Part shown: positions 4,632 through 38,568 of the stretch, in pieces
Position numbering within the stretch: position 1 is the first letter of the stretch
How the letters are laid out: every line of letters starts with the position of its first letter
NCBI GenBank assembly: GCA_963521395.1
Contig: CAUQTY010000005.1
Coordinates: forward strand, 115,354 to 179,353
Direction of reading: 5' to 3'
DNA from: an uncultured Sphingomonas sp.
GTDB lineage: Bacteria; Pseudomonadota; Alphaproteobacteria; Sphingomonadales; Sphingomonadaceae
DNA: 64,000 bases
The notes under the pieces: generated by a model
Databases searched by the model: none
What the model was told of the DNA's origin: nothing
Seen by the model: only the letters and a program-made list of their open reading frames with translations
Made by a program: the position numbers and the translations under genes

Positions 4632-4722
4632 CATACCGATATTTCGTCAGAATTCTTGATTGCCGTGCCAGTGAGATTTAGAGCACTTTTGCCCTTAATG
4701 AAACTGATTAAACGTCGGAAAC
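4632..4722. promoter_or_regulatory. Two putative TetR operators (consensus TTTTCCGA-N7-TCGGAAAA)
   Basis: CCGA-TATTTCG-TCAGAATT at 4636 and CTGA-TTAAACG-TCGGAAA at 4704, upstream of the fadB-like gene. Confidence 0.6.
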
Positions 4723-4761
4723 GCTTGTTCTTACCGAGAATGGCAGTCTAAAGTTTCCTCC

Positions 4762-6818
4762 ATGACCTCACCAATCACAACTGCGATCCGCGATGGCGTT
4801 CTCGTGATCACGAGCAACAACCCTCCCGTTAATGCCATCAGCACAGCCGTAAGAACTGGCTTGATCGAAGCCATCGAGGCAGCCGAGCAAGACCAAAGCG
4901 TGGCTGCTTGCGTCATCATCGGGGAAGGTCAGACGTTCTTCGCCGGCGCGGATGTCAAAGAGTTCGGACAGGCACCTGTTGAGCCGCTTCTTCCGACGGT
5001 AGTCGACAGGATTGAAGCTTGCAGTAAGCCGGTGCTCGCAGCCATTCACGGAACTGCGCTCGGCGGCGGCCTCGAGATTGCGATGGCTTGCCACTATCGC
5101 CTGGCAGTACCGTCAGCGAAGCTTGGCCTCCCGGAAGTAAAGCTTGGCCTTATGCCGGGCGCGGGTGGGACACAGCGCCTACCTCGACTCGTCGGCGTGC
5201 CTAAAGCGCTCGAAATGATCACCAGCGGGAGTCCGATTGGCGCTCGCGAAGCGCTCGATATCGGACTGATCGACCGGCTGGCGGAGGGCGATCTGCTTGA
5301 GGAAGCCGAGGCGTTTGCGCGTGAATGCAGTCAGATGCGACCGCTCCCAAGGAGCTCTCAATCCGACGCCAAATTGGCTGACGCACGCGTTAGATCAAGT
5401 CTGTTTGACGAATTCCGCCGGGCTAACGCGCGCAAGTTCCAAGGCTTCGAGGCACCAGACGCAATCCTTCAGGCGATAAAGACAGCGGTAACGCTACCCT
5501 ATTCTGAGGGCGTCCAGGAGGAACGGAGCTATTTCTCAAGCTGCGCGGCAGCACACAGGCGAAGGCGCAGCGCTATCTCTTCTTCGCCGAGCGGCAAGCA
5601 GGAAAGATCGACGGCATCGGCAAGGAAGTAACCCCTCGCCCCGTCAATCGCGTCGGGGTGATCGGTGCCGGCACAATGGGTGGCGGGATCTCGATGAACT
5701 TTCTGTCGGCCGGCTTCCCTGTGACCATAGTCGAGATGCAGCAGGACGCCCTCGATCGCGGTACCGCGATCATGCGCAAGAATTACGAGGCGACGGCAGC
5801 GAAGGGGCGAATGACTGCCGAGCAGGTGAGCCAAGCAATGGAAAGGCTAACCGCAACCTTGGACCTTCAAGCACTCGCCGAATGTGACCTCATCATTGAG
5901 GCCGTGTACGAGAATATGGACGTGAAGAAGGGTATCTTCACGAAGCTCGATGACATTGCCAAGCCAGGCGCGATCTTGGCCACCAACACCAGCTATCTCG
6001 ATGTAGATGAGATCGCGGCCTCGACCGAGCGTCCCCAGGATGTCGTCGGGCTGCACTTCTTCTCGCCCGCCAATGTCATGAAATTGCTTGAGGTCGTGCG
6101 CGGCGAGAAGACCGCGACCGACGTGCTAGTTACCGCCATGCAGCTTGCGAAGAAGATCAAGAAGGTCGCGGTGGTCGCGGGCGTCTGCCATGGTTTCATT
6201 GGCAACCGCATCCTTCAGGCCCGGCAAAAGCAAGCGCTTGAGTTATTGCTGGAGGGCGCAACTCCGGCACAGATCGACAAGGTCCACACGGAATTTGGAA
6301 TGCCGATGGGACCTTTCCAGATGGCAGATCTAGCTGGCGTGGACATCGGTTGGCATCGGGATCCCTCGCGCATCGAGTCAATCCGTGAAGCGCTCTGTGC
6401 CGTTGGCCGGCTTGGTCAGAAGACGAGCGCCGGCTTCTATGACTATGACGACAGGCGCCGACCGAGCCCGTCGCCCGTGGTGCAGCAGCTAATCGACGGT
6501 TTTCGCGCGAAGCGAGGCGTCCAGAAGCGCGAGATCAGCGATCAGGAGATTGTCGAGCGCACCCTCTACACAATGGTGAACGAAGGGGCGAAAATCCTTG
6601 AAGAGGGTATGGCTCAGAGAGCATCCGACATCGATGTTGCTTGGGTCTATGGCTACGGCTGGCCCATCTATCGGGGCGGCCCGATGTTCTGGGCTGATAC
6701 AGAAGGCCTCGACAAGATCGTCGCGGGGTTGAAGCGCCAACAGCCACGCATGCCGGAATTCAGCTTCTCTCAGCTACTTCTGAACAAAGCAGAGTTGTGT
6801 GAGGCTTTCATCGACTGA
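4762..6818 (+). pseudogene. Enoyl-CoA hydratase / 3-hydroxyacyl-CoA dehydrogenase (FadB/FadN-like); -1 frameshift near 5525, real or a sequencing error
   Basis: Crotonase GGGLE/PEVKLG motifs, then [10 protein letters not shown] and GLHFFSPA; adding one G in GAACG(G)GAGCTA restores [25 protein letters not shown] and joins the two ORFs. Confidence 0.85.
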
Positions 6819-6999
6819 CCGATGATCGCCAGGGTCCACCGTCACTCAGTTGCCACTAGCGCGCCTGGGATACGTGGAAGAGTGACTCAGGGGGGTACCC
6901 TGCGCAGCTAAGGGCCGCAGCAACAGCATTCGAAGACACTTTTCATGACTGCAATCCGAATAATTATCGTGTTTGCAAGGATGATGCTATAGGTGCGGA

Positions 7000-8277
7000 A
7001 TGGTAGATGCACATTCCCCAGCCCTGCAAGTGACGCCTTCGAGATCTCACCTGAGCTTCGACGTTGCCATTGTTGGTGGCGGCCACGGCGGATCGCAGGT
7101 CGCCATCGCTCTTCGGCAAGGCGGCTTCGAGGGAAGCATTGGGATTATCAGTGACGATCCAAATCTTCCGTATGAGCGCCCTCCTCTCTCGAAAGAGTAT
7201 TTCGCAGGCGAAAAGCAGTTCGAACGCATGCTGTTGCGACCGGCAGACTTCTGGAGCGATCGGCGTATTGATCTTCTCTTAGGCGAGCGAGTGATCTCAT
7301 TAGATAGCGCCGCTCGAACGATCCGCACCTCTGGTAACAACGAGATCGGATATCGCACGCTGGTGTGGGCGGCCGGTGGTGCCACGCGGCGTTTAAACTG
7401 CACGGGGCACGACCTTGCCGGGGTCCATAGCCTGCGCTCGCGCGCCGATGCCGACGCACTACTCGCGGAACTGCCGCAGGTGGAAACTGCGGTTATCATC
7501 GGCGCGGGCTACATCGGGCTTGAAGCAGCCGCAGCGCTGGTCAAGAAGGGCAAGGCGGTCATCGTTCTCGAGGCTCAGGATCGGGTACTCGCGAGAGTAT
7601 CGGCCGAGCCACTTTCGCGTTTCCTGGAAGACGAGCATCGTCGGCAGGGCGTGGATGTAAGGCTTGGAATTCAAGTTGATTGTATTCTGGGCGACGAGCG
7701 AGTCACTGGCGTTCGGCTCCAGAATGGGACCGTTCTACCTTGTGACACGGTTCTAGTCGGGATCGGCATCGTTCCTGAAGTCGGCATCCTCGCCGAGGCC
7801 GGCGCCGAAGTCGGCAATGGCGTCGTTGTGGACGAACGCTGCCGCACCTCTCTGAAAGACGTCTACTCAATCGGCGACTGCGCCATCCATCCCAACCGCT
7901 ACAGTGCCGTGGGTTCGGTGAGACTTGAGTCAGTTCAGAACGCCACTGACCAGGGAACCGTTGTTGCCAAATCGATCCTCGGGCAAGACGTCGCCTACGC
8001 AGCCATGCCTTGGTTCTGGTCCAATCAGTATGATCTGAAGCTACAGACCGTCGGCCTGGGCACTGGCCACGACGATGTCGTCGTTCGGGGGGAGCCATCA
8101 GCCCGTAGCTTCTCTGTTATCTACCTACGCGAAGGCCGGGTGATTGCGCTCGACTGCGTCAACGCCACCAAGGACTTCGTTCAAGGCCGCAAGCTGATCG
8201 AGAGCCGCGCTCAGGTTGATCCGCGAGATCTAAAGGCGCCCGAGCATCGCCTGGCCGATCTAGCCGTCAACAGCTGA
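7000..8277 (+). CDS. FAD-dependent ferredoxin reductase (putidaredoxin reductase-like)
   Basis: VGGGHGG; PYERPPLSK; IGAGYIGLE; RLESVQNA; PWFWSNQYDLKLQ. Confidence 0.93.
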   Translation: MVDAHSPALQVTPSRSHLSFDVAIVGGGHGGSQVAIALRQGGFEGSIGIISDDPNLPYERPPLSKEYFAGEKQFERMLLRPADFWSDRRIDLLLGERVISLDSAARTIRTSGNNEIGYRTLVWAAGGATRRLNCTGHDLAGVHSLRSRADADALLAELPQVETAVIIGAGYIGLEAAAALVKKGKAVIVLEAQDRVLARVSAEPLSRFLEDEHRRQGVDVRLGIQVDCILGDERVTGVRLQNGTVLPCDTVLVGIGIVPEVGILAEAGAEVGNGVVVDERCRTSLKDVYSIGDCAIHPNRYSAVGSVRLESVQNATDQGTVVAKSILGQDVAYAAMPWFWSNQYDLKLQTVGLGTGHDDVVVRGEPSARSFSVIYLREGRVIALDCVNATKDFVQGRKLIESRAQVDPRDLKAPEHRLADLAVNS

Positions 8278-8281
8278 ACCA

Positions 8282-8304
8282 TTTTCCGACTTTTGATCGG
8301 ATTT
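8282..8304. promoter_or_regulatory. Putative TetR operator
   Basis: TTTTCCGA-CTTTTGA-TCGGATTT. Confidence 0.65.
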
Positions 8305-8341
8305 GGTCGACATCGAATTAAAGCCGTGCGATAACTCGTGC

Positions 8342-8869
8342 ATGGCACAGCAAGCTGCGACCCTGACTGCCGCGGACGAGGAACGCCGCGGAAACTTCTT
8401 GCGCTCGATGCGGGCCGTACCGGGCCCGATCGCCCTGATCGCCAGCAAGGCGGACGGCCAACGCTCCGGTCTGGCAGCGACAGCCTGGAACTCGCTCTGT
8501 GCCGATCCACCGATGCTTCTGGCCTGCGTTAATCGCACTGCCAGTGCCTACCCGCTGATCACGACCGCCAGAGCATTCTCAATCAACCTCCTCGCGCGCG
8601 GCAGTGACGAGCTAGTCGCCATCTTTTCCAAGCAGCGAGGGCTGGAGGGTGACGCGCGGTTTCTTGAGGGTGATTGGGACGAAGGTCCGCTCGGCATGCC
8701 TATGCTGAGGCGCTCCGTAGTTTCCTTCGAGTGCGAGCTTGATGGCACGCACGATTACGGGACGCATACAATCCTGATCGGCCGGGTCGGTGAGGTCAGA
8801 GCTCGCGACCAACAGGAGGCGCTTCTCTACGTGGACGGTTGCTTTGCCTCGGCCCTGCGGCAGGCCTAA
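8342..8869 (+). CDS. Flavin reductase (HpaC/RutF-like); probable FMNH2 donor for the LLM monooxygenase
   Basis: SGLAATAWNSLCADPPMLLACVN; GTHTILIGRV; LLYVDG; start placed at ATG 8342. Confidence 0.9.
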   Translation: MAQQAATLTAADEERRGNFLRSMRAVPGPIALIASKADGQRSGLAATAWNSLCADPPMLLACVNRTASAYPLITTARAFSINLLARGSDELVAIFSKQRGLEGDARFLEGDWDEGPLGMPMLRRSVVSFECELDGTHDYGTHTILIGRVGEVRARDQQEALLYVDGCFASALRQA

Positions 8870-9228
8870 CAGTCGTCTTTCTCGATCCAGGCGAGCGGTT
8901 CGCCGAACTCGACCAGCGCACCAATTGCTGACGAGCCTTCGCTAACAATCCCCGACGCGTCGGCTCTGATCTCAACTGCCTCGCCAAGAAGATCGAGCGT
9001 CGCGATCGCCTCCCCTGCCCGCACGAGCTCACCGTCGGCCTTCCGTTGTGACAGGGTTCCCACGTGCGGCGCCATGACCGCCAATCCTTGGCGTCCCGAT
9101 AGCTCGCGCGAGATTGACAGCTGCACGCCGGGCCTGAGCTCGACTTGCATGGATCGCATCTCATTACCCGCAAATGCGCTCAGCAGAGCGCGGGCTTCAT
9201 TCACCAGCTGATCGTCGAGCACGCTCAC
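8866..9228 (-). CDS. Biotin/lipoyl-carrier-like protein lacking the modifiable lysine
   Basis: APHVGT..GELVRAGEAIATLDLLGEAVEIRADASGIV..GALVEFGEPL follows the biotinyl fold, with DLLG where EAMK is expected; GTGA-coupled to the biotin carboxylase. Confidence 0.75.
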   Translation of the reverse strand: MSVLDDQLVNEARALLSAFAGNEMRSMQVELRPGVQLSISRELSGRQGLAVMAPHVGTLSQRKADGELVRAGEAIATLDLLGEAVEIRADASGIVSEGSSAIGALVEFGEPLAWIEKDDC

Positions 9229-10580
9229 GCCTCCCCCGTTAGGAAGCCGGTCTCGAGCCAGCGCGTATGGATCTGGTTGGCAACGAAGTCGGGGTGACGG
9301 ACAATCTGCCGATGCAGGCCGATGGTCGTCTGCACTCCCCCGATCTCAAACTCATCGAGGGCACCGGCCAGTCGATCAATCGCGCTGGCTCGGTCGTCGG
9401 CATGCACGATCAGCTTCGCCACCATCGAGTCGTAGAAGGGTGGAATGGAGGCACCCGCCGTCATATGGCTGTCGACGCGAATGCCTTCGCCGACCGGCGG
9501 TTGCCATGTGGTGACTGTCCCGGGGGACGGAGCGAAGTCACGTTCGGGGTCTTCGGCGTTGATCCGGCACTCGATGGCATGGCCATTGAGCTTGATTTCT
9601 TCTTGCCGGAGGCTCAGCGCCTCCCCGCCCGCAATCCTGATCTGCTGCTGCACTAAGTCGGCGCCGCTGATCATCTCGCTAACGGGGTGTTCCACCTGGA
9701 TGCGGGCATTGACCTCGATGAAGTAAATCTCCTGCCGCTGCACGTCATACAGGAACTCCGCCGTGGCCGCGTTGCGGTAACGAACGCTGCTGGCGAGACT
9801 GACCGCGGACTCGTGAAGCTTCCAGCGCAGATCGTCAGGCATCGCCGCGCAGGGCGCCTCCTCGATCAGCTTCTGATAGCGACGCTGGACCGAGCAATCG
9901 CGCTCGCCAAAGTGCAGCACATTGCCTTGGCCATCGCCCATCAGCTGCACTTCGACATGCCGGGCCTCGGGAACGAAGCGTTCGATGAATAAGGTGCCAT
10001 CGCCGAAGGCAGCCTGCGCCTCGGCTGACGCGCGGGCATAGCCAGCCTCGGCCTCGTCACCGTTACGGGCGATCACCATGCCGCGCCCGCCACCGCCGGC
10101 CGAAGCCTTGATCAGCACGGGATAGCCAATCCGGTCCGCCTCGCGGCGCGCGTCGGCTGCAGACGCGATGTCGTTGCAGCCGGGAACCAGGGGTACACCG
10201 GCTGCTTCAGCAAGCGATCGCGCCTGGATCTTGTCTCCCAGCGCTTCGATCGTCTCTGGGGTGGGGCCAACAAAAGCGATCCCGTGTTGCTCGCAAAGAC
10301 GCGGCAAAACCGCCCGCTCGGACAGGAAGCCATAGCCCGGGTGAAGGGCGTCGCAGCCCGACGCCTTGGCGGCGTGCACGACCAGGCGAGGATCGAGATA
10401 GCTCTCCATTGCCTTTGCCGGGCCGAGCACGATGCTGCGGTCAGCCATGCGAGCGCCAAGACTGTCCTTGTCGGCCTCCGACACGGCCAGAACGGTTTCA
10501 AGGCCAAGTGCCTGGGCGGCGCGAATGATGCGCACCGCGATCTCTCCGCGATTGGCAATGAACAGGCGCTTCAGGTTCAT
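9225..10580 (-). CDS. accC: Biotin carboxylase
   Basis: IANRGEIAVR; HPGYGFLSE; KASAGGGGRGM; ERDCSVQRR; EVNARIQVEHPV; ECRINAEDP; YDSMVAK. Confidence 0.93.
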   Translation of the reverse strand: MNLKRLFIANRGEIAVRIIRAAQALGLETVLAVSEADKDSLGARMADRSIVLGPAKAMESYLDPRLVVHAAKASGCDALHPGYGFLSERAVLPRLCEQHGIAFVGPTPETIEALGDKIQARSLAEAAGVPLVPGCNDIASAADARREADRIGYPVLIKASAGGGGRGMVIARNGDEAEAGYARASAEAQAAFGDGTLFIERFVPEARHVEVQLMGDGQGNVLHFGERDCSVQRRYQKLIEEAPCAAMPDDLRWKLHESAVSLASSVRYRNAATAEFLYDVQRQEIYFIEVNARIQVEHPVSEMISGADLVQQQIRIAGGEALSLRQEEIKLNGHAIECRINAEDPERDFAPSPGTVTTWQPPVGEGIRVDSHMTAGASIPPFYDSMVAKLIVHADDRASAIDRLAGALDEFEIGGVQTTIGLHRQIVRHPDFVANQIHTRWLETGFLTGEA

Positions 10581-10744
10581 GCGCTGGGCTGAGCCTCTTG
10601 ATTGCTGCTTCTAATCAGCCGCGGCTTGCGGCCGCGCCGCAGATGCAGGGTCGCCTCAGTCGAAACGAGGCGGAGCTCGCCAATGCTGGACTGGTCGAAC
10701 TCAGCGGCCAAGCTTTCGAGCGATGAAGAGGGAAACTTGTTCAT
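10577..10744 (-). CDS. 55-aa protein resembling the N-terminal oligomerisation segment of BCCP (below the ORF-track cutoff)
   Basis: My translation: MNKFPSSSLESLAAEFDQSSIGELRLVSTEATLHLRRGRKPRLIRSSNQEAQPSA*; its TGA overlaps the accC ATG (ATGA); resembles the start of the BCCP at 21995-22501 (FPDDLQLLAEQFLASGWTELRV). Confidence 0.65.
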   Translation of the reverse strand: MNKFPSSSLESLAAEFDQSSIGELRLVSTEATLHLRRGRKPRLIRSSNQEAQPSA

Positions 10745-10753
10745 TGTCAGGGC

Positions 10754-10783
10754 AGCGGCGCTGCTCGTCCAAGCAGCGCCGCT
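10754..10783 (-). terminator. GC-rich hairpin after the TonB-dependent receptor (terminator, attenuator or mRNA stabiliser)
   Basis: AGCGGCGCTGCT / AGCAGCGCCGCT, 12-bp perfect stem; no U-tract. Confidence 0.45.
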
Positions 10784-10790
10784 CTTCTCC

Positions 10791-13361
10791 TTAGTAGCGA
10801 TAGCTCAGTGACACGCCGTAGGTGGCTGGCTTGCCGCGGTATCGGATGATCGTGTCGAGGAAGGTCGAGACAGCCGTCGTATAGCCCTTGTCCGCAACGT
10901 TTTGTCCGTAGACCATCAGGCGCCAGCGATCATCGGCGCTCTTGAGGCCGGCTCGCAGATCCAGAGTTGAGTAGCTTTCAATTTCGAAGTCATCGGCTGG
11001 CAGCGCAGAATTAGTGAAGGTCGTGTTCTGCTTGCCCTGATACACCAAAGTGGCGCCGACGAAGGCTCCGAAGCTAGTGGACACAGGCACTTCATACTGT
11101 CCGTCCAGCGCAGCACTAAATTTCGGCGTGTAAGGCAGCGCGGAACCACGGAAATTGCCGGTGTAACCGGAGGCATTGTAGACAAGGTTTCCGTCCGGCG
11201 TTGCTGAATAGTCGCCGGTGACCTTGGATTTCAGGTACGTGGCGCTAGCCGACAGGTTAAGGCCTTCGATCGGGCGTACGGTCAGTTCGCCTTCCACACC
11301 GTAGATGTACGACTTGGGTACGTTCAGCAGTTTCTCGAGGAGGCCGAAGACAGTGTCCTGAATTCGCCCGCGAACCTGCTTGTCCTTGTAGTCGTAATAG
11401 AAGGCTGCACCGTTCAGCTGGATGGCGCGGTTCGCCAGTGGCGCCTTGAAGCCGGCTTCGTACGCCAAGACCTTCTCCTGCGTCGCAGGGGTGTATTGCA
11501 GTACGCGCGATGCACCGATCGCCGAGAAGATGCCGGCCTTATAACCCTGACTCACGGTGCCGTAGAGCAGCAGCCCATTCTCGAATTTGTAGTTGGCGCC
11601 GACCCGGAACGACACATTATCTTCGCTGAGGCTATCGTTAACCGGGGTCAGCGTCGATTTAGCGGTTCCGAGCAGGAGGTCGCCCGTGGTCGGGAAGCAC
11701 TGACCCGGCTGGATGGAAATTGGAACGCTGTTGAGCGCCGCCCCGAACAAAGTCGCTGCACCCTGAAGAGGGTCAATGGCCGGATCGTTGTAACAATAAG
11801 ACGCATTCTGCTTGTTCTTGGTATAGCGAAGGCCACCCTGCAGCGTGAGGCGGTCGATCACCTCGAACTCGACATTGCCGAAGACGCCGTAGCTCCGCAT
11901 CCGCGAAGTGAAGTTGTTAAGAGTGAGAGTGATCAGGTCGGCGTTGGCCGAATAATCGCCGAGATAGAACAAGTTGTTCTGCTCGGTCCTGACATTGTCA
12001 TAGGCCACCCCGATAAGGGCGTCGATCCGATCGGCATTGTAGGAAAGGCGCACTTCCTGGTTGAAGGACCGCACATTACCGTCCAGCGGAACGTCGACAA
12101 CCCGCGCTGTCGTTCCGTCAAGATCCTGGCCATAGGCAAGCTCCTTGCGGGCAAGTGCAGTCACAGATGTCAGCGTCAACGCTTCGGTCAGGTCGTAATC
12201 GGCCCGCGCGGTGCCCTGATAGTAATTGTTGTCCGACTTACCGATTAGACCAGGAGTCCACTCGGCATCACGCGAATTGTTGCTTACCGGCGTTCCAAGC
12301 AGCGCCTGAGCGCCTGCTCGAACACTGGCATTGGTGCTGGTCAGGCGACCAACGACTACCGACTGCCGGCCCACGAAGCTGGCGTCGTATCCAGCCGATG
12401 TCGGGTTCGTGAGCGAAGCGTAACGCGCCGCATCGACGATGCCGAAGGGATTGCCTGAGGCGGAGAGCTGCGCCTGCGTCCCATAAATGTTGAGCAGCGT
12501 TCGGACATACTGCGGAGCCAGGGGGTCAGAACGATCGCGCACGGCCGTTCCGCTAAGCTGGATTTGTAGCGCATCGGTGGGCTGCAGGTTGACTGTCAGT
12601 CGGCCCATCAGCTTGCGCGTCGAACCATTCTCGTCATCCGGCCGCGACAGGCTGCGCTGCCATGCGCCGCCGTTGATCGCCTTGACTGCAAGACGCGCCT
12701 GGATTCCTTCGGTCAGCGGTCCGCTTATGTAACCGCTCGCTTCCACGCGGTCGAAGCGCTCATAGGATGCACCGAAGCCGTAACGCAGGGTACGTGTGGG
12801 CTTGCCGAAGATGTAGTTGACGGCGCCGCCCGTGGCACTTTGACCGAAGATGGTGCCCTGAGGGCCCTTCAGCACTTCGACCCGTTCGACGTCGAGGTCG
12901 AGCGCATCGGACATGGTGGGAACGTTGCGCGGCACTTCGTCGCCGTAAACGGCAACAGACGGCGCTGCTCCAAATGTCGCGTCGTAGAGGCCGATGCCGC
13001 GAAGGGTGAACACCGGCGTCGAGTAGAGTGACTGCGTGAAGGTGAAGCCCGGAACCAGCTTCGACAAATCCTCAGGTCCCGCGATACCGCGATTCGAGAG
13101 ATCCTGGCCGGTCGCGGCAGAAATGGTTAGGCCAACGTTGTTGATCGCCTGAATGCGCTTGTTCGCGGTGACAACGATCTCGCCACTAGTAGTGGCGGCC
13201 GCAGCCTCGGCTTGTTCGGCCGGTTTGTTCTGGAGAGCCGCGACCGCTTCGGCGCTTTGCTGGCCTTCGGGCGGAGCGGAGGTTCCCGGAGTTTGAGCAA
13301 AAGCGGGCGTGCCAATCAGCGCGAGAACTGAGCTGCAGGCCAAAAAGGACCAGGTCTTCAT
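10791..13361 (-). CDS. TonB-dependent receptor
   Basis: Signal peptide; EIVVTANKR TonB box; VERVEVLKGPQGTIFG plug motif; C-terminal YGVSLSYRY. Confidence 0.95.
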   Translation of the reverse strand: MKTWSFLACSSVLALIGTPAFAQTPGTSAPPEGQQSAEAVAALQNKPAEQAEAAAATTSGEIVVTANKRIQAINNVGLTISAATGQDLSNRGIAGPEDLSKLVPGFTFTQSLYSTPVFTLRGIGLYDATFGAAPSVAVYGDEVPRNVPTMSDALDLDVERVEVLKGPQGTIFGQSATGGAVNYIFGKPTRTLRYGFGASYERFDRVEASGYISGPLTEGIQARLAVKAINGGAWQRSLSRPDDENGSTRKLMGRLTVNLQPTDALQIQLSGTAVRDRSDPLAPQYVRTLLNIYGTQAQLSASGNPFGIVDAARYASLTNPTSAGYDASFVGRQSVVVGRLTSTNASVRAGAQALLGTPVSNNSRDAEWTPGLIGKSDNNYYQGTARADYDLTEALTLTSVTALARKELAYGQDLDGTTARVVDVPLDGNVRSFNQEVRLSYNADRIDALIGVAYDNVRTEQNNLFYLGDYSANADLITLTLNNFTSRMRSYGVFGNVEFEVIDRLTLQGGLRYTKNKQNASYCYNDPAIDPLQGAATLFGAALNSVPISIQPGQCFPTTGDLLLGTAKSTLTPVNDSLSEDNVSFRVGANYKFENGLLLYGTVSQGYKAGIFSAIGASRVLQYTPATQEKVLAYEAGFKAPLANRAIQLNGAAFYYDYKDKQVRGRIQDTVFGLLEKLLNVPKSYIYGVEGELTVRPIEGLNLSASATYLKSKVTGDYSATPDGNLVYNASGYTGNFRGSALPYTPKFSAALDGQYEVPVSTSFGAFVGATLVYQGKQNTTFTNSALPADDFEIESYSTLDLRAGLKSADDRWRLMVYGQNVADKGYTTAVSTFLDTIIRYRGKPATYGVSLSYRY

Positions 13362-15870: not shown

Positions 15871-15893
15871 TTTTCCGACGTGTTTTCGGAAAA
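15871..15893. promoter_or_regulatory. Putative TetR operator, perfect palindromic arms
   Basis: TTTTCCGA-CGTGTTT-TCGGAAAA in the divergent snoaL/tetR gap; a weaker copy at 15997-16015. Confidence 0.75.
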
Positions 15894-31184: not shown

Positions 31185-31300
31185 TTTTTCGACGTTTTTT
31201 CGGAAAACTTATTGCGAGAAGATTGCGCGTGCAGCGAGCTTGGCATACTGTTCCAGCAATAGGAGAACTGCATTCGGATTTCCGAAGCCGTTTCGGGGAA
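31185..31300. promoter_or_regulatory. Two putative TetR operators in a divergent promoter
   Basis: TTTTTCGA-CGTTTTT-TCGGAAAA (31185-31207) and TTTCCGA-AGCCGTT-TCGGGGAA (31279-31300). Confidence 0.72.
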
Positions 31301-31313: not shown

Positions 31314-32354
31314 TTGAGCCTCGACGTTACTGGCAGCTACCGCTACCCGCCGCCCAATTCGGCGTGGCTAGCGCTGTGCACCGAGGCTGTGCTGGAACCC
31401 GATCTGCCGATTGTCGACGCGCATCATCATCTCTGGACGGAAGGCGGCGCTCCCTATCTCCTGGACGAACTGAGCGACGATCTCGCTAGTGGACACCAAA
31501 TCGAAGCCACGGTCTTCGTGCAAGCGCACTATGGTTACCGCCCCGACGGCCCGGTGGCACTCCGACCAGTCGGGGAGACTGAGAAAGTAGCATCGTTGCG
31601 AGCTGAAGCCCGGCGTCGAGGATCACGGAGCGATGTCGCAGCAGCGATCGTCGGCTTTGTCGATCTCACGCTCGGCGATGATGCGGCCGAGGTGATCGAA
31701 GCGCATCAGGCAGCGGCCCCAGATGCGTTCCGGGGCGTCCGCCACAGCGTTTCGCGCGATGAGCTGTTTCCGAACGGCATCGTGCTTCGGCCCGCACCGG
31801 CCGGGCTCCTGTCGAGCGACTCCTACCGTGGGGGCTTAAAGGCCGTAGAGCGCGCAGGTCTCAGCTATGACGCAATGCTCTATCATGGGCAGATCGACGA
31901 GCTCGTTGACTGCGCCCGGGCCTTTCCGAACCTTCCGATCGTCCTCGACCACTATGGCTGCCTGCTCGGGGTCGGGCCGTACGAAGGCCGGCGAGACGAA
32001 CTTATGGTCGAGTGGCGGCGTTCGCTGACCAGGCTCGCGGCATTCCCCAATGTCACGATCAAGCTCGGCGGGCTTGGCATGATCGTTTGCGGCGCTCGCT
32101 GGCACCTCGACGATCAGCCGCCCTCCTCGTCCATGCTGGCGGGTGACTGGCGGCCGATGTTCGACACGGCTGTGGACATCTTCGGGCCGGACCGTTGCAT
32201 GCTCGAGAGCAATTTCCCGGTCGACAAGGCCATGTGGTCGTATCGGACCTTGTGGAACACCTTCAAGCGGCTGACGATCAGCTTTAGCCCGAGCGAACGC
32301 GACAACCTCTTCCGCGGGACTGCGTCCCGCTTCTACCGATTGGCCCCGCAATGA
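31314..32354 (+). CDS. Amidohydrolase-family (amidohydro_2) protein; candidate lactone hydrolase
   Basis: IVDAHHHLW; RGVRH; IVLDH; KLGG; ESNFPVD; TTG start after GAGGGA. Confidence 0.88.
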   Translation: MSLDVTGSYRYPPPNSAWLALCTEAVLEPDLPIVDAHHHLWTEGGAPYLLDELSDDLASGHQIEATVFVQAHYGYRPDGPVALRPVGETEKVASLRAEARRRGSRSDVAAAIVGFVDLTLGDDAAEVIEAHQAAAPDAFRGVRHSVSRDELFPNGIVLRPAPAGLLSSDSYRGGLKAVERAGLSYDAMLYHGQIDELVDCARAFPNLPIVLDHYGCLLGVGPYEGRRDELMVEWRRSLTRLAAFPNVTIKLGGLGMIVCGARWHLDDQPPSSSMLAGDWRPMFDTAVDIFGPDRCMLESNFPVDKAMWSYRTLWNTFKRLTISFSPSERDNLFRGTASRFYRLAPQ

Positions 32355-33880
32355 ACCGTGCGCAGCACCTGTTTCGCCAGGCCGAGAGCCGTCCGACCCA
32401 CAAGGCGCTGATCGCCGGTGACCGGCGACTCACCTACCTCGAACTGGCCAAGCTCGTGACCTCCATGGCTGAGCGGCTGGCAGCGCGCGGAGTGGAACAG
32501 GGTGATCGTGTGGGTGCGATGATCCCCAACTCGCTTGACTTCATCATCGTCCAGCAAGCCCTTTTCGCACTCGGGGCGGTGTTCACCCCAATCAACATCT
32601 ACTTTCGCCATGACGAGCTGGAGCATCTAATCAGAAGCTGCGGGCTTAACCTGCTGATCCTGCCGGAGGAACTCGCCGACCGCGTGCACCCGCTACGCAC
32701 CCACCAGCCTGAGACCCTGCGGGACATCCTCGTGCTTGAAGATCACCTGCTCGCCTTCGCGGCGATCAACTCTTCAGCTGCTCCCCTGGCGCTGGCGGAT
32801 GTGAAGCCCGAAGACGCGGTGCTCATCCTCAACACGAGCGCCACGACCGGAAAGTCTAAGGGAGTGCCGCTCACGGCCGCCAATCTTGCCGCCAACTACG
32901 ATCGCACTCCGCAATGGTTGGGACTGAACGGCAACGACGTCGTCCTTTGCGCGCTTCCGCTCTATAACACCTTCGGCCTCAACCAGTGCATCAATGCGGC
33001 AATTGTGACCGGTGCGACCTTGGTCCTTGAATCACGCTTCGATGCTCACCGGGTCGCTGAAACCATCTACCGGGAACAGTGCACGTTCCTGCCTGCGGTC
33101 CCGACCATGCTCCAGAAGCTGCTCGATGGTCCCTCAAACAAGGCTTACCAGCTTCGATCGCTAAGACTGGTCATGACTGGCGGCGCTCCGGTACCTGCAG
33201 CGCTCCTTCGCCGCTTGAACGAGTTCACCAGCGGCCGGACGCGCGTTGTCACCGGCTACGGCCTCACGGAGGGAACGGCCCTCGTCACTCTGACCGATGT
33301 TGAGCTGGATGAGACCGGCGAGGTGCGACGCGGCGGCAGCATCGGGCGGGTGCTTGACGGTATGGAGCTCGCGATCCTCGATCCCGAGGGCATCGAGCTC
33401 CCCGCCGGGAACGTCGGTGAGATCTGCATTCGCGGCCCCAACATCATGAGTGGGTACCTCGACTCGCCCGAAGACAGCGCCATCGCGCTCGCTGGCGGCT
33501 GGCTGCACAGCGGCGACCTCGGCGTAATGGACGAGGACGGCTTTGTGACCATCGTCGACCGAATCAAGGACATCATCATCCGCGGCGGGCAGAACATCTA
33601 CCCGGGCGAAATCGAAGAGGTGCTCTACGATTGCGGCGGGGTTGCGGAGGTCGCAGTGGTCGGCCGAAGCCACGACATGCTTGGCGAGGTGCCGGTGGCC
33701 TATGTTGCGCCGGCGGCCGGCCTGCATCTCAATCCCTGCGCGCTGATCGAAGCCTGCAAGCAGCGCCTGGCGCCTTATAAGACGCCGGTCGAAATCCGCA
33801 TCCTTCCTTCACTTCCCAAGGGTCCGACAGGCAAGATTCTGCGTCGAAAGGTGCGCGCCGAGCACGAGCGCGCGGCGTGA
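32351..33880 (+). CDS. Acyl-CoA synthetase (long-chain fatty acid-CoA ligase family)
   Basis: NTSATTGKSKG; GYGLTE; WLHSGD; DRIKDIIIRGGQNIYP; TGKILRR. Confidence 0.92.
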   Translation: MNRAQHLFRQAESRPTHKALIAGDRRLTYLELAKLVTSMAERLAARGVEQGDRVGAMIPNSLDFIIVQQALFALGAVFTPINIYFRHDELEHLIRSCGLNLLILPEELADRVHPLRTHQPETLRDILVLEDHLLAFAAINSSAAPLALADVKPEDAVLILNTSATTGKSKGVPLTAANLAANYDRTPQWLGLNGNDVVLCALPLYNTFGLNQCINAAIVTGATLVLESRFDAHRVAETIYREQCTFLPAVPTMLQKLLDGPSNKAYQLRSLRLVMTGGAPVPAALLRRLNEFTSGRTRVVTGYGLTEGTALVTLTDVELDETGEVRRGGSIGRVLDGMELAILDPEGIELPAGNVGEICIRGPNIMSGYLDSPEDSAIALAGGWLHSGDLGVMDEDGFVTIVDRIKDIIIRGGQNIYPGEIEEVLYDCGGVAEVAVVGRSHDMLGEVPVAYVAPAAGLHLNPCALIEACKQRLAPYKTPVEIRILPSLPKGPTGKILRRKVRAEHERAA

Positions 33881-34746
33881 TTGAACGACGCAATCCCGTG
33901 CTCAGCGCGGGCATCTCCATCAACAGCTGGAGCTGGAACGCCGGCGCCGACCGGACCATCCTCCTGATTCACGGTGGCCGCGACCAGGCCCGCAGCTGGG
34001 ATTCTTACGTCGAGCGCATGGGCCCATCCTTCCATTTCGTCGCCGCCGATCTTCGGGGTCACGGCGACAGCGGCTGGTCGCCCGAGGGCAATTACAGCAT
34101 CGCCGACTACGTCGCCGACATGGGCGAGGTTTTGCTTTCCTTGCCCGGTCAGGTCTCAATCGTCGCTCATTCTCTCGGCGGCAACCTCGCCCTCCGCTTG
34201 GCCGCAATGTTCCCCGAGAAGATCGACGCGGTTGCCGCAATCGAATGTATCGAACTGCCCGAAGTGCGCGCCGCAGCCACGCGCTCGGTTGCCGAGCGGG
34301 CGCGGGAATGGTTCGACCAGCGGAAGTCGTTTGAGGGTAAGGCGCCGCCCTTCTATCCCGACCTTGCCGACGTCGCCGCGCGGCTGGCTCGACAATACCC
34401 ATATCTGGACCGGCCATTGATCAACCACCTCGCCCGCTTCAGCGTGAAGGAAGTGGAAGGCGGTCTCACCTGGAAGTTCGATCACCGCACCCGCTCGCGT
34501 CCGCCCCTCGACAGCGATGGGCGTGACTTTGATGCCATGCTCGGTTCGATCCAATGCCCTGTGCTGCTCTTCTATGGCGACCAGAGCTTCGTGCCCTTGC
34601 CGCAGGCCTGGCGCCTGGGGCTGCTGAGGCCAGCCGGCCTCAGACGCTACCCCGACACTGGACATTGGCTGCACCATCAGCAGCCCGACCGCTTCGCAGC
34701 GGACACCTTAGCCTTCCTGAAAGACCGGAGCCCTACCCTTGCCTGA
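33877..34746 (+). CDS. Alpha/beta hydrolase
   Basis: LIHGG; DLRGHGDS; AHSLGG nucleophile elbow; TGHWLH. Confidence 0.9.
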   Translation: MIERRNPVLSAGISINSWSWNAGADRTILLIHGGRDQARSWDSYVERMGPSFHFVAADLRGHGDSGWSPEGNYSIADYVADMGEVLLSLPGQVSIVAHSLGGNLALRLAAMFPEKIDAVAAIECIELPEVRAAATRSVAERAREWFDQRKSFEGKAPPFYPDLADVAARLARQYPYLDRPLINHLARFSVKEVEGGLTWKFDHRTRSRPPLDSDGRDFDAMLGSIQCPVLLFYGDQSFVPLPQAWRLGLLRPAGLRRYPDTGHWLHHQQPDRFAADTLAFLKDRSPTLA

Positions 34747-35944
34747 AGCTGCCATCGTCGCGACCGCTCGCACTCCCATTGGCAAGGCGCATCGCGGCGC
34801 CTTCAACGACACCGATGCGCCCGTCCTTGCCGGCCATGTGCTGAACACGGTCCTCGACCGCTCGGGCGTGGAAGCCGACCGCGTCGAGGACTTAATCCTC
34901 GGCTGCGGCGTGCAATGGGGCAGCAGCGGGTCGAACGTCGCGCGCACGGCTGCCTTCACGGCGGGTCTTCCCGACAGCGTCGCTGGAACCACGCTCGACC
35001 GGAAGTGCGGGTCCGGCCTCACTGCTCTCGCCTTTGCCGCCAGGTCGATCATTGCGGGCGAGAATGACGTCATGATCGCCGGCGGGGTGGAGACCATCTC
35101 CCACACTCGCAACGCGCACGCGCCGACCTATCGAGCCCAGGTCGACGCGGTGCTCGAACGCCAGCCACACGCTTACATGGCAATGATCGAAACCGCCGAG
35201 ATCGTCGCCGAGCGCTACGGCGTCAGCCGCGAGGCGCAGGACGACTGGGCCGCCATCAGCCATCAGCGCGCCGCCGCCGCGCAGCAGGCCGGGCGGTTCG
35301 ATGACGAAATCGTGCCGATCACCGTCACTCGAAACCTCGTTGCAAAGTCCGGCGAGGTGACCGGCCGTGAGGAGCTGACCCTGGCCCGGGACGAAGGCAT
35401 TCGTGGCGACACGACCGCCGAGACCCTCGCCAACCTCAAGCCCGTGTGGCGCGATGGCACGGTCGTCCGCGAAGGCCGCTTCATCACCGCCGGCAATGCC
35501 AGCCAGCTCAGCGACGGCGCTTCCGCCCAATTACTGATGAACCGCGAAGTGGCCGAGGCGGAAGGCCGCGAGATCCTCGGCCTGTATCGCGGCTTCCAGT
35601 CAGTCGGCTGCCGGCCCGACGAGATGGGCATCGGGCCGGTGCTCGCTGTGCCCAAGCTACTCCAGAAGCACGGGCTTCAGGTCGAGGACATCGGCTTGTG
35701 GGAGATCAACGAAGCCTTCGCCAGCCAATTCCTCTATTGCCGCGACCAGCTTGGCATCTCGGCGGACCGCATCAACGTCAACGGCGGCGGCATCGCCTTG
35801 GGCCATCCCTTCGGCATGACCGGAAGCCGTCTTGCAGGACACGCTCTCCTTGAAGCCCGCCGCCGCGGCGTGCGCTACGCCGTAGTGTCCATGTGCGTTG
35901 CCGGCGGGATGGGGAGTGCCGGCCTGCTGGAGATCCCGCAATGA
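34739..35944 (+). CDS. Acetyl-CoA C-acyltransferase (degradative thiolase)
   Basis: DRKCGSG catalytic Cys; EINEAFA; GHPFG; MCVAGGMG. Confidence 0.93.
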   Translation: MPEAAIVATARTPIGKAHRGAFNDTDAPVLAGHVLNTVLDRSGVEADRVEDLILGCGVQWGSSGSNVARTAAFTAGLPDSVAGTTLDRKCGSGLTALAFAARSIIAGENDVMIAGGVETISHTRNAHAPTYRAQVDAVLERQPHAYMAMIETAEIVAERYGVSREAQDDWAAISHQRAAAAQQAGRFDDEIVPITVTRNLVAKSGEVTGREELTLARDEGIRGDTTAETLANLKPVWRDGTVVREGRFITAGNASQLSDGASAQLLMNREVAEAEGREILGLYRGFQSVGCRPDEMGIGPVLAVPKLLQKHGLQVEDIGLWEINEAFASQFLYCRDQLGISADRINVNGGGIALGHPFGMTGSRLAGHALLEARRRGVRYAVVSMCVAGGMGSAGLLEIPQ

Positions 35945-36870
35945 GCCAACCCCAGCTTCGCTTCGACGACGATGTCGCAATCGTCACGGGTGCTGGACGC
36001 GGCCTTGGCCGGGAGCATGCCCTGCTGCTGGCGCAGCGAGGCGCCGCCGTGCTGGTCAACGACATAGACCCGGGCGAAGCAGCCGCAGTGGTTGCCGAGA
36101 TCGTCGACGGAGGTGGCCGTGCGGTCGCCAACAGCGATGACGTCTCGCAGCCGAGCGGCGCGCAAGCGATCGTCGCTCATGCTGTCGCGAGCTTCGGCAA
36201 ATTGACCATCCTCATCAACAATGCCGGCGTCATCGACTTCGCTCCGCTGGCAGAGATTACCGACAGTCAGTGGCGGCGCATGATGTCCGTCACACTCGAC
36301 GGTGCCTTCTACATGTGCCGGGCGGCTTGGACGGCCTTGGTGGAGGCGGGTGGCGGCGCGATCATCAACACCACCAGCAATGCCGGTTTTGCCGGCAACG
36401 AGCTGCTGGTGCACTACGGGGCTGCCAAGCTTGCCGTCGCCGGACTGACCAAGGCGCTGGCGCAGGAAGGCAAGCCGCTTGGCATCCGGGTCAACGCGGT
36501 CGCTCCCATGGCCGTGACCCGCATGAACCGCGATCACTTCTTCGGCGGCGCGAGCGTCGAAGGACCCGACTGGCGTGACGATATTCGCGGGGGCAAGGTG
36601 CCTATGGGCCCTCCTTCCGCCGTGGCACCGACCGTCGCCTGGCTCGCCCATCGCGACACGCCCGTTAACGGCCAAATCTACAGCAGTTCGTCTGGTAAGG
36701 TCGCCCGGGTCGGCTTTGTTATCGGCGAAGGCTGGTTCGACCCGCACCACACGCCCGAGGATCTTGCCGAACATGAGGTCCAGATCGATTCTCTTGAGTC
36801 CTTCTGTGATCCGCAATCCACGGGTGACGAACTCGCCCTCATCCCTCCCCTGTTCACCGAGCGAGACTGA
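35941..36870 (+). CDS. SDR, MFE-2-type (R)-3-hydroxyacyl-CoA dehydrogenase-like
   Basis: [44 protein letters not shown] coupling to the thiolase. Confidence 0.85.
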
Positions 36871-37580
36871 TGCCCCAGAAGATATTTCCCGACGCCGCCG
36901 CGGCCCTCGACGGGCTGCTTCACGACGGCATGCTGATCGCCGCCGGCGGCTTCGGTCTGTGCGGCATTCCCGAGCGGCTGATCGACGCTATTGTTCAGAG
37001 CGGTGTCACCGGCCTGACCGTCGCCTCCAATAATGCCGGCATCGACAATGAGGGGCTCGGCAAGCTGCTGCGCACTCGTCAGATTGCCAAGATGATCTCG
37101 TCCTACGTTGGCGAGAACAAGGAGTTCGAGCGCCAGTATCTGTCGGGCGAGCTCGAGGTCGAATTCTGCCCCCAGGGCACGCTGGCCGAGCGGCTTCGCG
37201 CCGGCGGCGCCGGCATCCCGGGCTTCTACACCAAGACCGGCGTCGGCACGAAGGTCGCCGAGGGCAAGGAAGTGAAGAGCTTCGACGGCGAGGAGTATAT
37301 CCTCGAGCGCGGCATCCGCGCCGACCTCGCCATCATCAAGGGATGGAAGGCCGACGAGAGCGGCAACCTCATCTTCCGCAAGACCGCCCGTAACTTCAAC
37401 GCGCCCGCCGCCACCAGCGGCAAGATCTGCGTCGCCGAGGTGGAGGAGATCGTGCCGATCGGCAGCCTCGATCCAGACGCCATCCACCTCCCCGGCATCT
37501 ATGTGAAACGCCTGATTCTGGGCGCGCCCTACGACAAGAGGATCGAGTTCCGCACTGTCCGCCAGAAGGAGGACGCATAA
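36870..37580 (+). CDS. scoA: 3-oxoacid CoA-transferase subunit A
   Basis: [37 protein letters not shown]. Confidence 0.93.
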
Positions 37581-38215
37581 TGCCTTGGTCCCGTGACGAT
37601 ATGGCCGCTCGCGCCGCGAAAGAGCTGCGCGACGGCTTCTACGTGAATCTCGGCATCGGCATCCCGACCCTGGTCGCCAATCACATCCCGCAGGGGCTGG
37701 AGGTCACGCTCCAGTCCGAAAACGGCATGCTCGGCATCGGCCCCTTTCCCTATGAAGACGAGGTCGACGCCGACCTCATTAACGCCGGCAAGCAGACCAT
37801 CTCCGAGCTCCCCTCGTCGGTTTATTTCAGCTCGGCCGACAGCTTCGCGATGATCCGCGGCGGGCATATCGACCTGACCGTCCTCGGCGCCATGGAGGTC
37901 AGCCAGGACGGTGACATCGCCAACTGGATGATCCCCGGCAAGATGATCAAGGGCATGGGCGGCGCGATGGACCTCGTCGCGGGAGTCAAGAAGATCATCG
38001 TCGTGATGGAGCACACCTCCAAGAACGGCGACCCCAAGTTCATTCCCGAATGCACCCTGCCGCTGACCGGCCGCAACGTCGTCGACATGATTATCACCGA
38101 CCTCGCCGTCTTCCAGCGCCCCGATCACCAAAGCCCCTTCAAGCTGATCGAAACCGCACCCGGCGTGACGCCCGAAGAAGTGCAGCAGAAGAGCAGCGCC
38201 AGCTACGACGTCTAG
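37580..38215 (+). CDS. scoB: 3-oxoacid CoA-transferase subunit B
   Basis: [14 protein letters not shown] catalytic Glu; GMGGAMDL. Confidence 0.93.
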
Positions 38216-38253
38216 GACCGCCGAAGCCAACTTATCAGCATCCGGAGCAATCA

Positions 38254-38568
38254 ATGCATCTACTCGTCACCACTCGCGATGGCCAAGAGCACGAGATCCC
38301 CGCCACTGCCGGCCAATCTGTCATGAACAACATTCGGGATGCCGGCATCGACGAACTCGTCGCCCTGTGCGGCGGATGCCTTTCCTGCGCCACCTGCCAC
38401 GTGCACGTCGACCCGGCCCGCGCGGGCGATCTGCCCCCCATGTCACAGGACGAGGATGACCTTCTTGATGCCTCGACAACACGCGACGCTTACTCGCGTT
38501 TGAGTTGCCAGCTTCCTTTTACCGAAGAGCTCAACGGCCTTCGCGTAACCATCGCGCAGGAAGACTAA
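38254..38568 (+). CDS. 2Fe-2S ferredoxin (putidaredoxin/Arx type); probable P450 electron donor
   Basis: GGAG RBS, ATG 38254; [19 protein letters not shown]. Confidence 0.92.

Follow-up and report, generated by a model that had tools for sequence, protein, structure and literature searches.

The upper route of 1,8-cineole degradation and its P450 are already known. CYP101J2 of Sphingobium yanoikuyae B2 converts 1,8-cineole to (1S)-2-alpha-hydroxy-1,8-cineole (PMC5598857), and in Rhodococcus C1 the route runs through hydroxycineole and oxocineole to a lactone that is unstable and to (R)-5,5-dimethyl-4-(3'-oxobutyl)-4,5-dihydrofuran-2(3H)-one (PMC4097962). Two further groups of enzymes bear on what may follow. 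The biotin carboxylases AcvCDE and HpeCBA employ PycB-type transferases, by which hydroxyacetophenones are carboxylated at their acetyl group (bioRxiv 2022.04.28.489975, PMC9618137), and in Ltp2-type retro-aldolases of steroid side-chain modules a DUF35 protein couples hydration and retro-aldol cleavage (PMC10398937). Here we compare with these systems a gene cluster in 64,000 nucleotides of an uncultured Sphingomonas sp. (GCA_963521395.1, contig CAUQTY010000005.1, positions 115,354-179,353 of the forward strand), a stretch that we call the window.

The cluster (4762-38568, about 34 kb) comprises 33 genes, with fadB counted once and a 55-codon carrier remnant included, and lies on contig C5 of a 2.9-Mb genome, G000. 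We propose, with a probability of roughly 0.45, that it is a single cineole regulon under TetR control, in which opening of the ring is followed by carboxylation of a methyl ketone. The evidence comes from a P450 of the CYP101J type, a core of downstream genes shared with otherwise different P450cin clusters, a carboxylase that groups with ketone carboxylases, and an operator that recurs in the promoters of the cluster. The literature searched, which left most subscription journals out of reach, yielded no account of the genes of the lower cineole pathway; here the known entry route is combined with lower genes for which ketone carboxylation is strongly predicted.

Gene content, operator and conservation

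Families were assigned by Pfam and NCBIfam searches of the open reading frames (ORFs) of the window.

4762-6818, plus strand: FadB-type enoyl-CoA hydratase/3-hydroxyacyl-CoA dehydrogenase, divided by a frameshift near 5530 into 4762-5631 and 5658-6818
7000-8277, plus strand: ferredoxin reductase (Pyr_redox_2 and Reductase_C), likely redox partner of the P450
8342-8869, plus strand: flavin reductase (PF01613), likely partner of the luciferase-like monooxygenase (LLM); the ORF opens at 8303, with an ATG at 8342
8866-9228, minus strand: biotin-carrier-like protein without the biotinylation lysine (Pfam, alignment)
9225-10580, minus strand: biotin carboxylase subunit (Pfam, NCBIfam)
10577-10744, minus strand: 55-codon remnant of a second biotin carrier, N-terminal motif only; relatives have a second carrier at this position
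10791-13361, minus strand: TonB-dependent receptor (Pfam), 57-70% identical to orthologues in syntenic loci
13465-14211, minus strand: SDR1 (Pfam), likely hydroxycineole dehydrogenase, 45% identical to an SDR adjoining a Rhodococcus P450cin gene
14214-15302, minus strand: luciferase-like (type II) Baeyer-Villiger monooxygenase (BVMO), the LLM, likely acting on oxocineole (PDB match, LLM identities)
15339-15728, minus strand: SnoaL/NTF2-fold protein, conserved next to the monooxygenase, candidate ketal-lactone hydrolase
16047-16754, plus strand: TetR-family regulator (Pfam), start uncertain, likely binder of the operator
16756-17556, minus strand: crotonase A, with a single catalytic Glu and 59% identity to crotonase B
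17567-18802, minus strand: cytochrome P450, apparently of the CYP101J group (PDB match, pocket, tree)
18977-19726, plus strand: SDR2, paralogue of SDR1 (56%), likely hydroxycineole dehydrogenase
19723-20550, minus strand: crotonase B (Pfam), one catalytic Glu
20531-21988, minus strand: PycB/OadA-fold carboxyltransferase with an altered metal site (NCBIfam, fold), likely subunit of a methyl-ketone carboxylase
21995-22501, minus strand: biotin carboxyl carrier protein (Pfam), MK motif intact
22498-23964, minus strand: CoA ligase 1, likely activating a beta-keto acid, replaced by a CoA-transferase in relatives
23977-25086, minus strand: small subunit of a paired acyl-CoA dehydrogenase (closest NCBIfam model PimD, score below cut-off)
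25083-26285, minus strand: large subunit of the acyl-CoA dehydrogenase pair (closest NCBIfam model PimC, score below cut-off)
26285-27094, minus strand: crotonase C, PaaG-like (NCBIfam), neither catalytic Glu
27091-27918, minus strand: metallo-beta-lactamase-fold hydrolase, top matches gamma-lactonases
27915-28841, minus strand: DUF35/OB-fold protein (PF01796 only, no MaoC domain detected)
28852-30003, minus strand: Ltp3-like thiolase-fold protein in which the Cys and the two His of thiolases are missing, likely subunit of a retro-aldolase
30006-31109, minus strand: Ltp4-like thiolase-fold protein, likewise without these residues
31314-32354, plus strand: amidohydrolase-fold protein (Pfam, NCBIfam), candidate lactonase
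32351-33880, plus strand: CoA ligase 2 (Pfam, NCBIfam)
33877-34746, plus strand: alpha/beta hydrolase (Pfam)
34739-35944, plus strand: degradative thiolase (Pfam), Cys/His/Cys motifs intact by motif check
35941-36870, plus strand: SDR3; a 57% identical homologue adjoins the LLM and NTF2 genes of the R. opacus P450cin cluster
36870-38215, plus strand: ScoA/ScoB of the housekeeping type, 92-94% identical to a second copy on contig C1
38254-38568, plus strand: 2Fe-2S ferredoxin (Pfam), likely redox partner of the P450

Every family named in the original prediction, which had been made from the sequence of the window alone, is present where it had been placed. The SDRs number three, not two (13465-14211, 18977-19726 and 35941-36870), and the three crotonases are indeed free-standing, with the FadB-type gene at 4762-6818 as an additional hydratase. 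Besides this frameshifted fadB, the TetR regulator, the SnoaL/NTF2 gene and the carrier remnant extend the earlier list. The hydratase part of fadB keeps both catalytic Glu residues, an intact paralogue (64-75% identical) is found on contig C4, and the break could be an assembly error; since fadB is broken in this assembly, the description of the cluster as apparently complete is unproven. All the other ORFs of the cluster translate without stops.

The unity of the cluster is suggested by a predicted palindromic operator in its intergenic regions, with a consensus of about WWTCCGA-N7-TCGGAWW. A matrix trained solely on the loci of 31 relatives was scanned over the 2.9-Mb genome, and the six top scores genome-wide (26.5 to 19.4) all lie in promoters of the cluster, the best score outside it being 16.9. 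In the order of their positions, the sites are:

4633-4653: upstream of fadB, score 20.7
4701-4721: second site upstream of fadB, score 20.6
6953-6973: upstream of the ferredoxin reductase gene, score 23.2
8283-8303: upstream of the flavin reductase gene, score 24.6
15872-15892: between snoaL and tetR, among the six top scores
18873-18893: weaker seventh site, between the P450 and SDR2 genes, score 15.3
31186-31206: strongest site, between the ltp4-like and amidohydrolase genes, score 26.5, with a looser second match at 31279-31299

Through the sites in front of them, fadB and the genes for the ferredoxin reductase and the flavin reductase, all of which lie apart, are linked to the cluster. 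The TetR protein presumably binds these sites. The operator is a candidate cineole-responsive switch. The 36 control loci, 731 kb in total, contain five sites, which are spread over 4 of the loci; the comparison of 4 sites with 0.24 expected is circular, the pattern having been read from the window. Palindromes of 14 and 22 bp, considered as alternative operators, are not conserved in relatives.

The grouping of the genes is not due to chance, as near-collinear matches to the 33 query ORFs (at least 40% identity) recur in other genomes: 27 in 40 kb of G185 (two stretches), 28 in G139 (three) and 26 in G492 (three). Distribution was surveyed in one draw of 400 genomes of the family with completeness of at least 90%, scoring the best 3-5 candidates per genome. 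The carboxyltransferase occurs at 79% identity or more in 7 of the 400 (G137, G139, G178, G185, G259, G322 and G492), and the P450 (at least 54%, the next best match being 48%) in exactly the same seven; the LLM (at least 63%) is found in six of them, the exception being G137, a 200-contig assembly.

The entry route and its substrate

The best PDB match of the P450 is CYP101J2 (5kyo, E 1e-166, compared to 1e-110 for P450cam). The two proteins share 244 of 402 residues (60.7%), the same count as BLAST gives for the protein of metagenome locus L103, and the heme Cys motif is present. By the usual nomenclature rule, a P450 joins a subfamily when its identity to one of the named proteins is above 55%, and the window enzyme exceeds this value for CYP101J. 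Of 14 pocket positions, which we take to be given correctly in P450cam numbering, 13 are common to CYP101J2, and camphor-type relatives differ. In a tree of 34 selected rows (CYP101J3 and J4 not among them) the protein falls with L103 into a 17-row clade (support 99/98) nested in a 21-row clade (100/99). Judged by its sequence, it appears to belong to the CYP101J group, as the original prediction had implied, and in the tree it stands with CYP101J2, away from the camphor-type CYP101 proteins. L103 provides the link to the characterized enzyme: its protein is identical to CYP101J2 at 400 of 402 positions and its gene order is that of the window. The contig of L103 also holds the second lower operon, together with another P450/LLM pair.

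The downstream genes point in the same direction. The best plasmid matches of the LLM (53-54%) come from two Rhodococcus plasmids (NZ_CP113799 and NZ_CP110470), namely pA of R. pyridinivorans P23 and a plasmid of R. opacus G13, where the neighbouring genes encode P450cin orthologues (E 7e-262; 92% identical to each other) together with a reductase and flavodoxin. These P450cin clusters share with the window the LLM, NTF2 and SDR genes, a carrier, the biotin carboxylase and the transferase (44-46%), and further the dehydrogenase pairs, a 3-oxoacid CoA-transferase, FadB and thiolase. The same core is thus fed by two unrelated cineole hydroxylases, and the P450cin (CYP176A) clusters (Citrobacter braakii, Rhodococcus C1, TMP1 and the two plasmids) follow the same route from hydroxycineole through oxocineole to the lactone (PMC4097962). 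The Rhodococcus clusters differ in the unrelated P450 (29%) and in a flavodoxin where the window has a ferredoxin; their regulator is of the LuxR type, they have two paralogues of the transferase and two genes of the cyclase family, and they are without Ltp3/Ltp4/DUF35, the TonB receptor and an operator match. Among 75 metagenome loci, 61 have an LLM with at least 50% identity, and 23 of these show a P450 (18 CYP101J-like, 5 P450cin-like and none of the camphor type, a zero that is biased because the search patterns were built from cineole-type LLMs).

The best PDB match of the LLM is 3,6-DKCMO (E 1.6e-105), and its fold near DKCMO together with the operator-bearing flavin reductase gene characterizes it as a type II BVMO. 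It is 53-54% identical to the LLMs of P450cin clusters versus 43-48% to camphor LLMs, from which trees tentatively separate it (supports 89 and 98; the C. braakii enzyme is not among the rows). Neither tblastn nor Pfam found a type I BVMO in the cluster or in the genome, as the original prediction had stated for the cluster; the camphor locus of Novosphingobium ES2-1, the positive control, gave OTEMO at E 1e-283 and has a P450 and an LLM 40% and 44% identical to those of the window. The likeness to the CAM pathway of Pseudomonas putida thus extends to the CYP101 P450, the dehydrogenase and the luciferase-like BVMO with its flavin reductase, while OTEMO is missing and the P450 pocket is different; conversely, the camphor-type loci L089 and L095 are without the carboxylase and aldolase modules. 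The earlier call of 1,8-cineole rather than camphor therefore agrees with the near-identical CYP101J2 gene in the same gene order, with the core shared by P450cin clusters and with the different, OTEMO-carrying camphor loci of sphingomonads, and we regard 1,8-cineole as the very probable substrate. The chemistry of this upper route is known from other organisms and the gene roles are inferred for this cluster: the P450 with its ferredoxin and reductase would yield hydroxycineole, SDR1/SDR2 would oxidize it to oxocineole, and the LLM with the flavin reductase would insert oxygen into the latter.

Several related loci deserve mention. At the end of several clusters (L061, L125, L127 and L128) there is a second P450/LLM pair (54-55% and 60-65%), which may represent other CYP101J enzymes of different stereochemistry. 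In L131, L133 and L134, a third lineage, an LLM of 61% identity adjoins a ferredoxin reductase and a P450 with 52-53% identity to the P450cin orthologue. A Rhodococcus plasmid (L094, NZ_CP088909) has a 50% identical LLM, the dehydrogenase pair, a MaoC pair and Ltp3/Ltp4/DUF35-like genes but no carboxylase, and may encode a related pathway.

The predicted lower route

The structure of the Rhodococcus C1 lactone implies 3-(2-hydroxyisopropyl)-6-oxoheptanoate as its open form, and the methyl ketone is present in both. The ketal-lactone would give this acid, perhaps with the aid of the NTF2 protein, and the lactonases would reopen its gamma-lactone. That the NTF2 protein helps to open the ketal-lactone is a guess from gene position. 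Y19, H39, N41, R42 and D95 are invariant in its 39 sequences, with D127 also listed as conserved, and the structure model is confident, with no specific structural match. In Pfam the gene has no match to limonene epoxide hydrolase (LEH), the Asp-Arg-Asp triad was not recovered, and the similarity to the LEH fold (TM score 0.79 at 17% identity) is no better than to other NTF2 proteins; matches in an atlas search were confined to unnamed NTF2 clusters. An equivalence of the snoaL-LLM-SDR1 genes with the limonene limABC operon was discarded for want of an LEH family match, and so was a 6-oxocamphor hydrolase as a model for crotonases A and B, as it is not among their 60 best PDB matches.

With no type I BVMO found, removal of the methyl ketone by the usual ester route is disfavoured, and the carboxylase suggests another way. 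The window system resembles HpeCBA (Rhodococcus rhodochrous GD02), AcvCDE (Sphingobium SYK-6) and XccABC (Aromatoleum aromaticum) in its three-part biotin carboxylase with a PycB-type transferase, and in the CoA activation of a beta-keto acid followed by loss of acetyl-CoA, as predicted for the window. It differs in having no kinase or phosphatase, an identity of about 35-37% to the Acv-like group, altered metal ligands, an extra lysine-less carrier and a predicted aliphatic substrate. The transferase, a TIM barrel of the PycB/OadA type, scores under the curated cut-offs (PycB 322 vs 402, OadA 286 vs 756). A Lys and a His-x-His motif serve the metal site of PycB/OadA proteins; in the window Lys is replaced by Tyr and one His by Asn, and the Rhodococcus transferases have Glu at the Lys position and keep both His. 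The acyl-CoA carboxyltransferase family PF01039 has four matches in the genome, none of them on contig C5, so the handling of a beta-branched acyl-CoA foreseen in the original prediction has to be revised for this carboxylase, which is not of the acyl-CoA type. Since it groups with ketone carboxylases, carboxylation most likely occurs at the methyl ketone end, and we consider it probable that the enzyme acts on the cineole-derived methyl ketone.

In a quick tree of 56 rows, some of them partial duplicates, the clade of the window transferase and a sister group with 61-66% identity join the transferases of Rhodococcus P450cin clusters (Shimodaira-Hasegawa-like approximate likelihood ratio test, SH-aLRT, 93); this group then joins kinase-linked Rhodococcus ones (SH-aLRT 99), with the Acv-like proteins apart. 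The Acv-like transferase of pBAR1, assigned by gene context and used as a stand-in for HpeA/AcvE, is 36.6% identical to that of the window and belongs to a separate clade. The sister-group loci scanned contain PPDK-like kinase, ligase and thiolase-type genes, as in Hpe, and once a tyrosine phosphatase. Pfam detects no kinase or phosphatase in the cluster, and tblastn searches of the genome, for which a single PPDK-like kinase and a single HAD phosphatase served as queries, found nothing at E 1e-10; the absence of a kinase is expected for a non-phenolic substrate.

The nature of the carboxylase product is suggested by a replacement among relatives. Ligase 1 is present at 78-80% identity in G259 and G322 and in none of G137, G139, G178, G185 and G492 at E 1e-100, and precisely these five genomes possess a dedicated 3-oxoacid CoA-transferase (57-64% identical to the Rhodococcus one vs 42-51% to the housekeeping type), which is missing from G259 and G322. 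This swap suggests that the product is a beta-keto acid. The ScoAB of the window is of the housekeeping type, not the dedicated transferase.

In the scheme that we propose, the carboxylase would add CO2 to the methyl ketone, giving a beta-keto acid to which ligase 1 (in relatives the dedicated CoA-transferase) would add CoA, and a thiolase would release acetyl-CoA to leave a substituted adipyl-CoA. One round of beta-oxidation by the dehydrogenase pair, hydratase, dehydrogenase and thiolase would then produce 2-(2-hydroxyisopropyl)succinyl-CoA, a tertiary beta-hydroxyacyl-CoA, which Ltp3/Ltp4/DUF35 would cleave by a retro-aldol reaction to acetone and succinyl-CoA. The exact order of these steps is tentative, and we would put it at somewhat less than an even chance. 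The best NCBIfam models of the dehydrogenase pair are PimC and PimD, both under cut-off, and the Ltp3-like and Ltp4-like proteins are likewise best matched, below cut-off, by PRK08313 (367 vs 514) and PRK07937 (164 vs 419), which we take to be Ltp3 and Ltp4, respectively. As the thiolase Cys and both His are missing from all close homologues listed, retro-aldol cleavage is the natural reading of this pair; the thiolase-type genes of kinase-linked loci keep these residues. With Ltp3/Ltp4 and Ltp2-ChsH2(DUF35) of actinobacterial steroid degradation the pair shares the thiolase fold without catalytic residues, the paired genes and the DUF35 partner; it differs in its scores below the NCBIfam cut-offs, the terpenoid context, the residues of the active-site motifs and the absence of MaoC. 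Pfam finds no MaoC hydratase partner in the cluster, in agreement with a substrate that brings its own tertiary alcohol.

Certain observations weigh against this reading. The P450 is just 61% identical to CYP101J2 and sits on its own branch. The LLM is nearer to P450cin-cluster enzymes by identity and tree, but a grouping with camphor-type LLMs is not rejected by the approximately unbiased (AU) test (p 0.144). The bias of the P450 count among metagenome loci belongs here too, and the seven genomes carrying the cluster represent five genera and are not independent. The transferase keeps the arginine that binds the carboxylate of pyruvate, which Acv-like transferases have lost. HpeCBA works on phosphorylated substrates only and the characterized relatives are limited to phosphorylated aryl ketones, a role of the phosphate that the distal carboxylate of the cineole acid could take over. 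The Ltp3/Ltp4/DUF35 set is not found in the Rhodococcus P450cin clusters, where the best plasmid-wide matches (35% and 31%) lie far from the cluster; not every such pathway, then, has the aldolase step. For acetone the genome yielded no route, as neither a canonical acetone carboxylase nor a type I monooxygenase was found. No definite role in the scheme can be given to ligase 2, the alpha/beta hydrolase, SDR3 or the three crotonases, which are unusual, fadB is frameshifted, and the layout of the operon fits an order in which the branch is removed first.

On a wider scale, we suggest, with less confidence than for the order of the steps, that two phyla share a kinase-free biotin carboxylase that opens the lower route for cineole, and probably for other p-menthane cleavage products, and that sphingomonads end this route with a steroid-type retro-aldolase yielding acetone and succinyl-CoA. 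The cluster supplies candidate genes for cineole breakdown beyond ring cleavage, and a concrete, synthesizable substrate can be proposed for a widespread branch of biotin carboxylases with an altered metal site. 1,8-Cineole (eucalyptol), a volatile that is abundant in plants, is cheap as a feedstock. If the scheme is true, aliphatic methyl ketones would have a one-ATP carboxylase, which would be new to enzymology and useful in biocatalysis, an unstudied carboxylase branch would gain a substrate, and the pathway would be completed past the ring-cleavage product, reportedly described in 1989.

Some details of the carboxylase genes are of separate interest. The biotinylation lysine of the carrier-like protein (8866-9228) is missing also in two aligned relatives. 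Both carriers (8866-9228 and 21995-22501) and the remnant (10577-10744), which has no clear ribosome-binding site, have a common N-terminal motif resembling a helix-hairpin, and the transferase ends in a similar C-terminus; these segments may serve to assemble the carboxylase. A Cnuibacter plasmid (L174, NZ_CP020716) carries the transferase, carrier, biotin carboxylase, BioY, dedicated CoA-transferase (66-68%) and thiolase with an adjoining SDR, a candidate minimal operon for ketone use. The Sphingomonas bisphenolicum plasmid pBAR1 (L090, NZ_AP018819), with Acv-like carboxylase genes and a HAD phosphatase, is a candidate for hydroxyacetophenone use.

Alternative readings and surroundings of the cluster

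The alternative that survives best, although we consider it unlikely, keeps the same enzymes and removes the branch first. CoA would be placed on the acid end, the dehydrogenase pair would introduce a 2,3-double bond, a crotonase would hydrate this to a tertiary alcohol, and Ltp3/Ltp4/DUF35 cleavage would release acetyl-CoA and 6-hydroxy-6-methylheptane-2,5-dione, whose methyl ketone would then be carboxylated. The Ltp pair, DUF35, lactonase, crotonase C and dehydrogenase pair do share one operon, like steroid side-chain modules (PMC10398937), and a second ligase is present; however, there is no MaoC hydratase, crotonase C is without both catalytic Glu and crotonases A and B have one each, and the leftover acyloin has no evident cleaving enzyme. 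Furthermore, substrates of HpeCBA must carry an anionic group at some distance, which the neutral diketone would not offer, and the Rhodococcus clusters possess the transferase and the dehydrogenase pair but no aldolase.

It is improbable that the cluster serves other or wider monoterpenoids, such as 1,4-cineole or compounds of the p-menthane type, with 1,8-cineole at most one substrate. The separate subclade of the window P450 would agree with this, as would G322, G259 and G492, where the lower module adjoins PQQ dehydrogenase, ene-reductase or zinc dehydrogenase genes and a distant LLM (in G322 also a type I BVMO). Yet these three genomes hold a CYP101J-like gene elsewhere, 13 of the 14 pocket residues are those of CYP101J2, and the core is common to two unrelated families of cineole P450s. 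In L049-L052, L060 and L064, the lower module likewise adjoins PQQ dehydrogenase, ene-reductase or zinc dehydrogenase genes, a type I BVMO and a distant LLM, and the same lower module may there be fed by an upper route for limonene/carvone.

A carboxylase for a beta-branched enoyl-CoA, in the style of geranyl-CoA or sitosterol degradation, or an anaplerotic pyruvate carboxylase would explain why the genes of the transferase and the dehydrogenase pair are neighbours in both lineages and why the pyruvate-binding arginine is kept, and ltp3/ltp4 reportedly act in branched sterol degradation. We regard this as very improbable, since the fold is wrong for an acyl-CoA carboxylase, the scores lie under the PycB/OadA cut-offs with the metal-site Lys and one His replaced, and isocitrate lyase is present for anaplerosis. 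There is a slim chance at best that the cineole pathway of this genome is in decay or lacks parts. The frameshift in fadB, the truncation of the second carrier and the histidine kinase gene that is split a short way upstream would agree with this; the remaining ORFs without stops, the intact operators and the intact fadB paralogue on C4 speak against it, and the fadB break may be an assembly error. The classical camphor pathway, to which the CYP101-family P450 and the DKCMO-like monooxygenase would point, is largely refuted, as OTEMO was not found in the genome, and also by the distance from the true, OTEMO-bearing sphingomonad locus and by the differing pocket residues.

Returning to the cineole cluster as such, its sequence features suggest that it was likely gained horizontally. 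Its G+C content is 62.2%, compared to about 66% in four large contigs, and a P450 with more than 40% identity was found in none of the 60 genomes of the same genus searched, many of them incomplete. Two tyrosine-integrase-like genes are located a few kb to the left of the window (L196:13427-17915) and two serine recombinase genes to the right (L197:7070-10721). A diverged dispersed repeat of about 100-150 bp has some ten copies on C1 and C5, with those at 4400-4533, 38635-38791 and 49106-49305 flanking the cluster. The window also contains a tRNA-Thr(TGT) gene (62909-62984), 50 bases of whose 3' part match C4:11289-11338 exactly, a possible attachment-site duplicate; no further repeat of the tRNA end was found elsewhere on contig C5. 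An MHYT-GAF-PAS hybrid histidine kinase gene (1351-4158) is interrupted by a stop codon in frame, located between 3213 and 3238, so that it and the frameshifted fadB are two neighbouring broken genes. Finally, a CBASS anti-phage system of four genes (53823-58007) encodes a CD-NTase, E1-E2 and JAB proteins and a 2TM/Cap15 effector.

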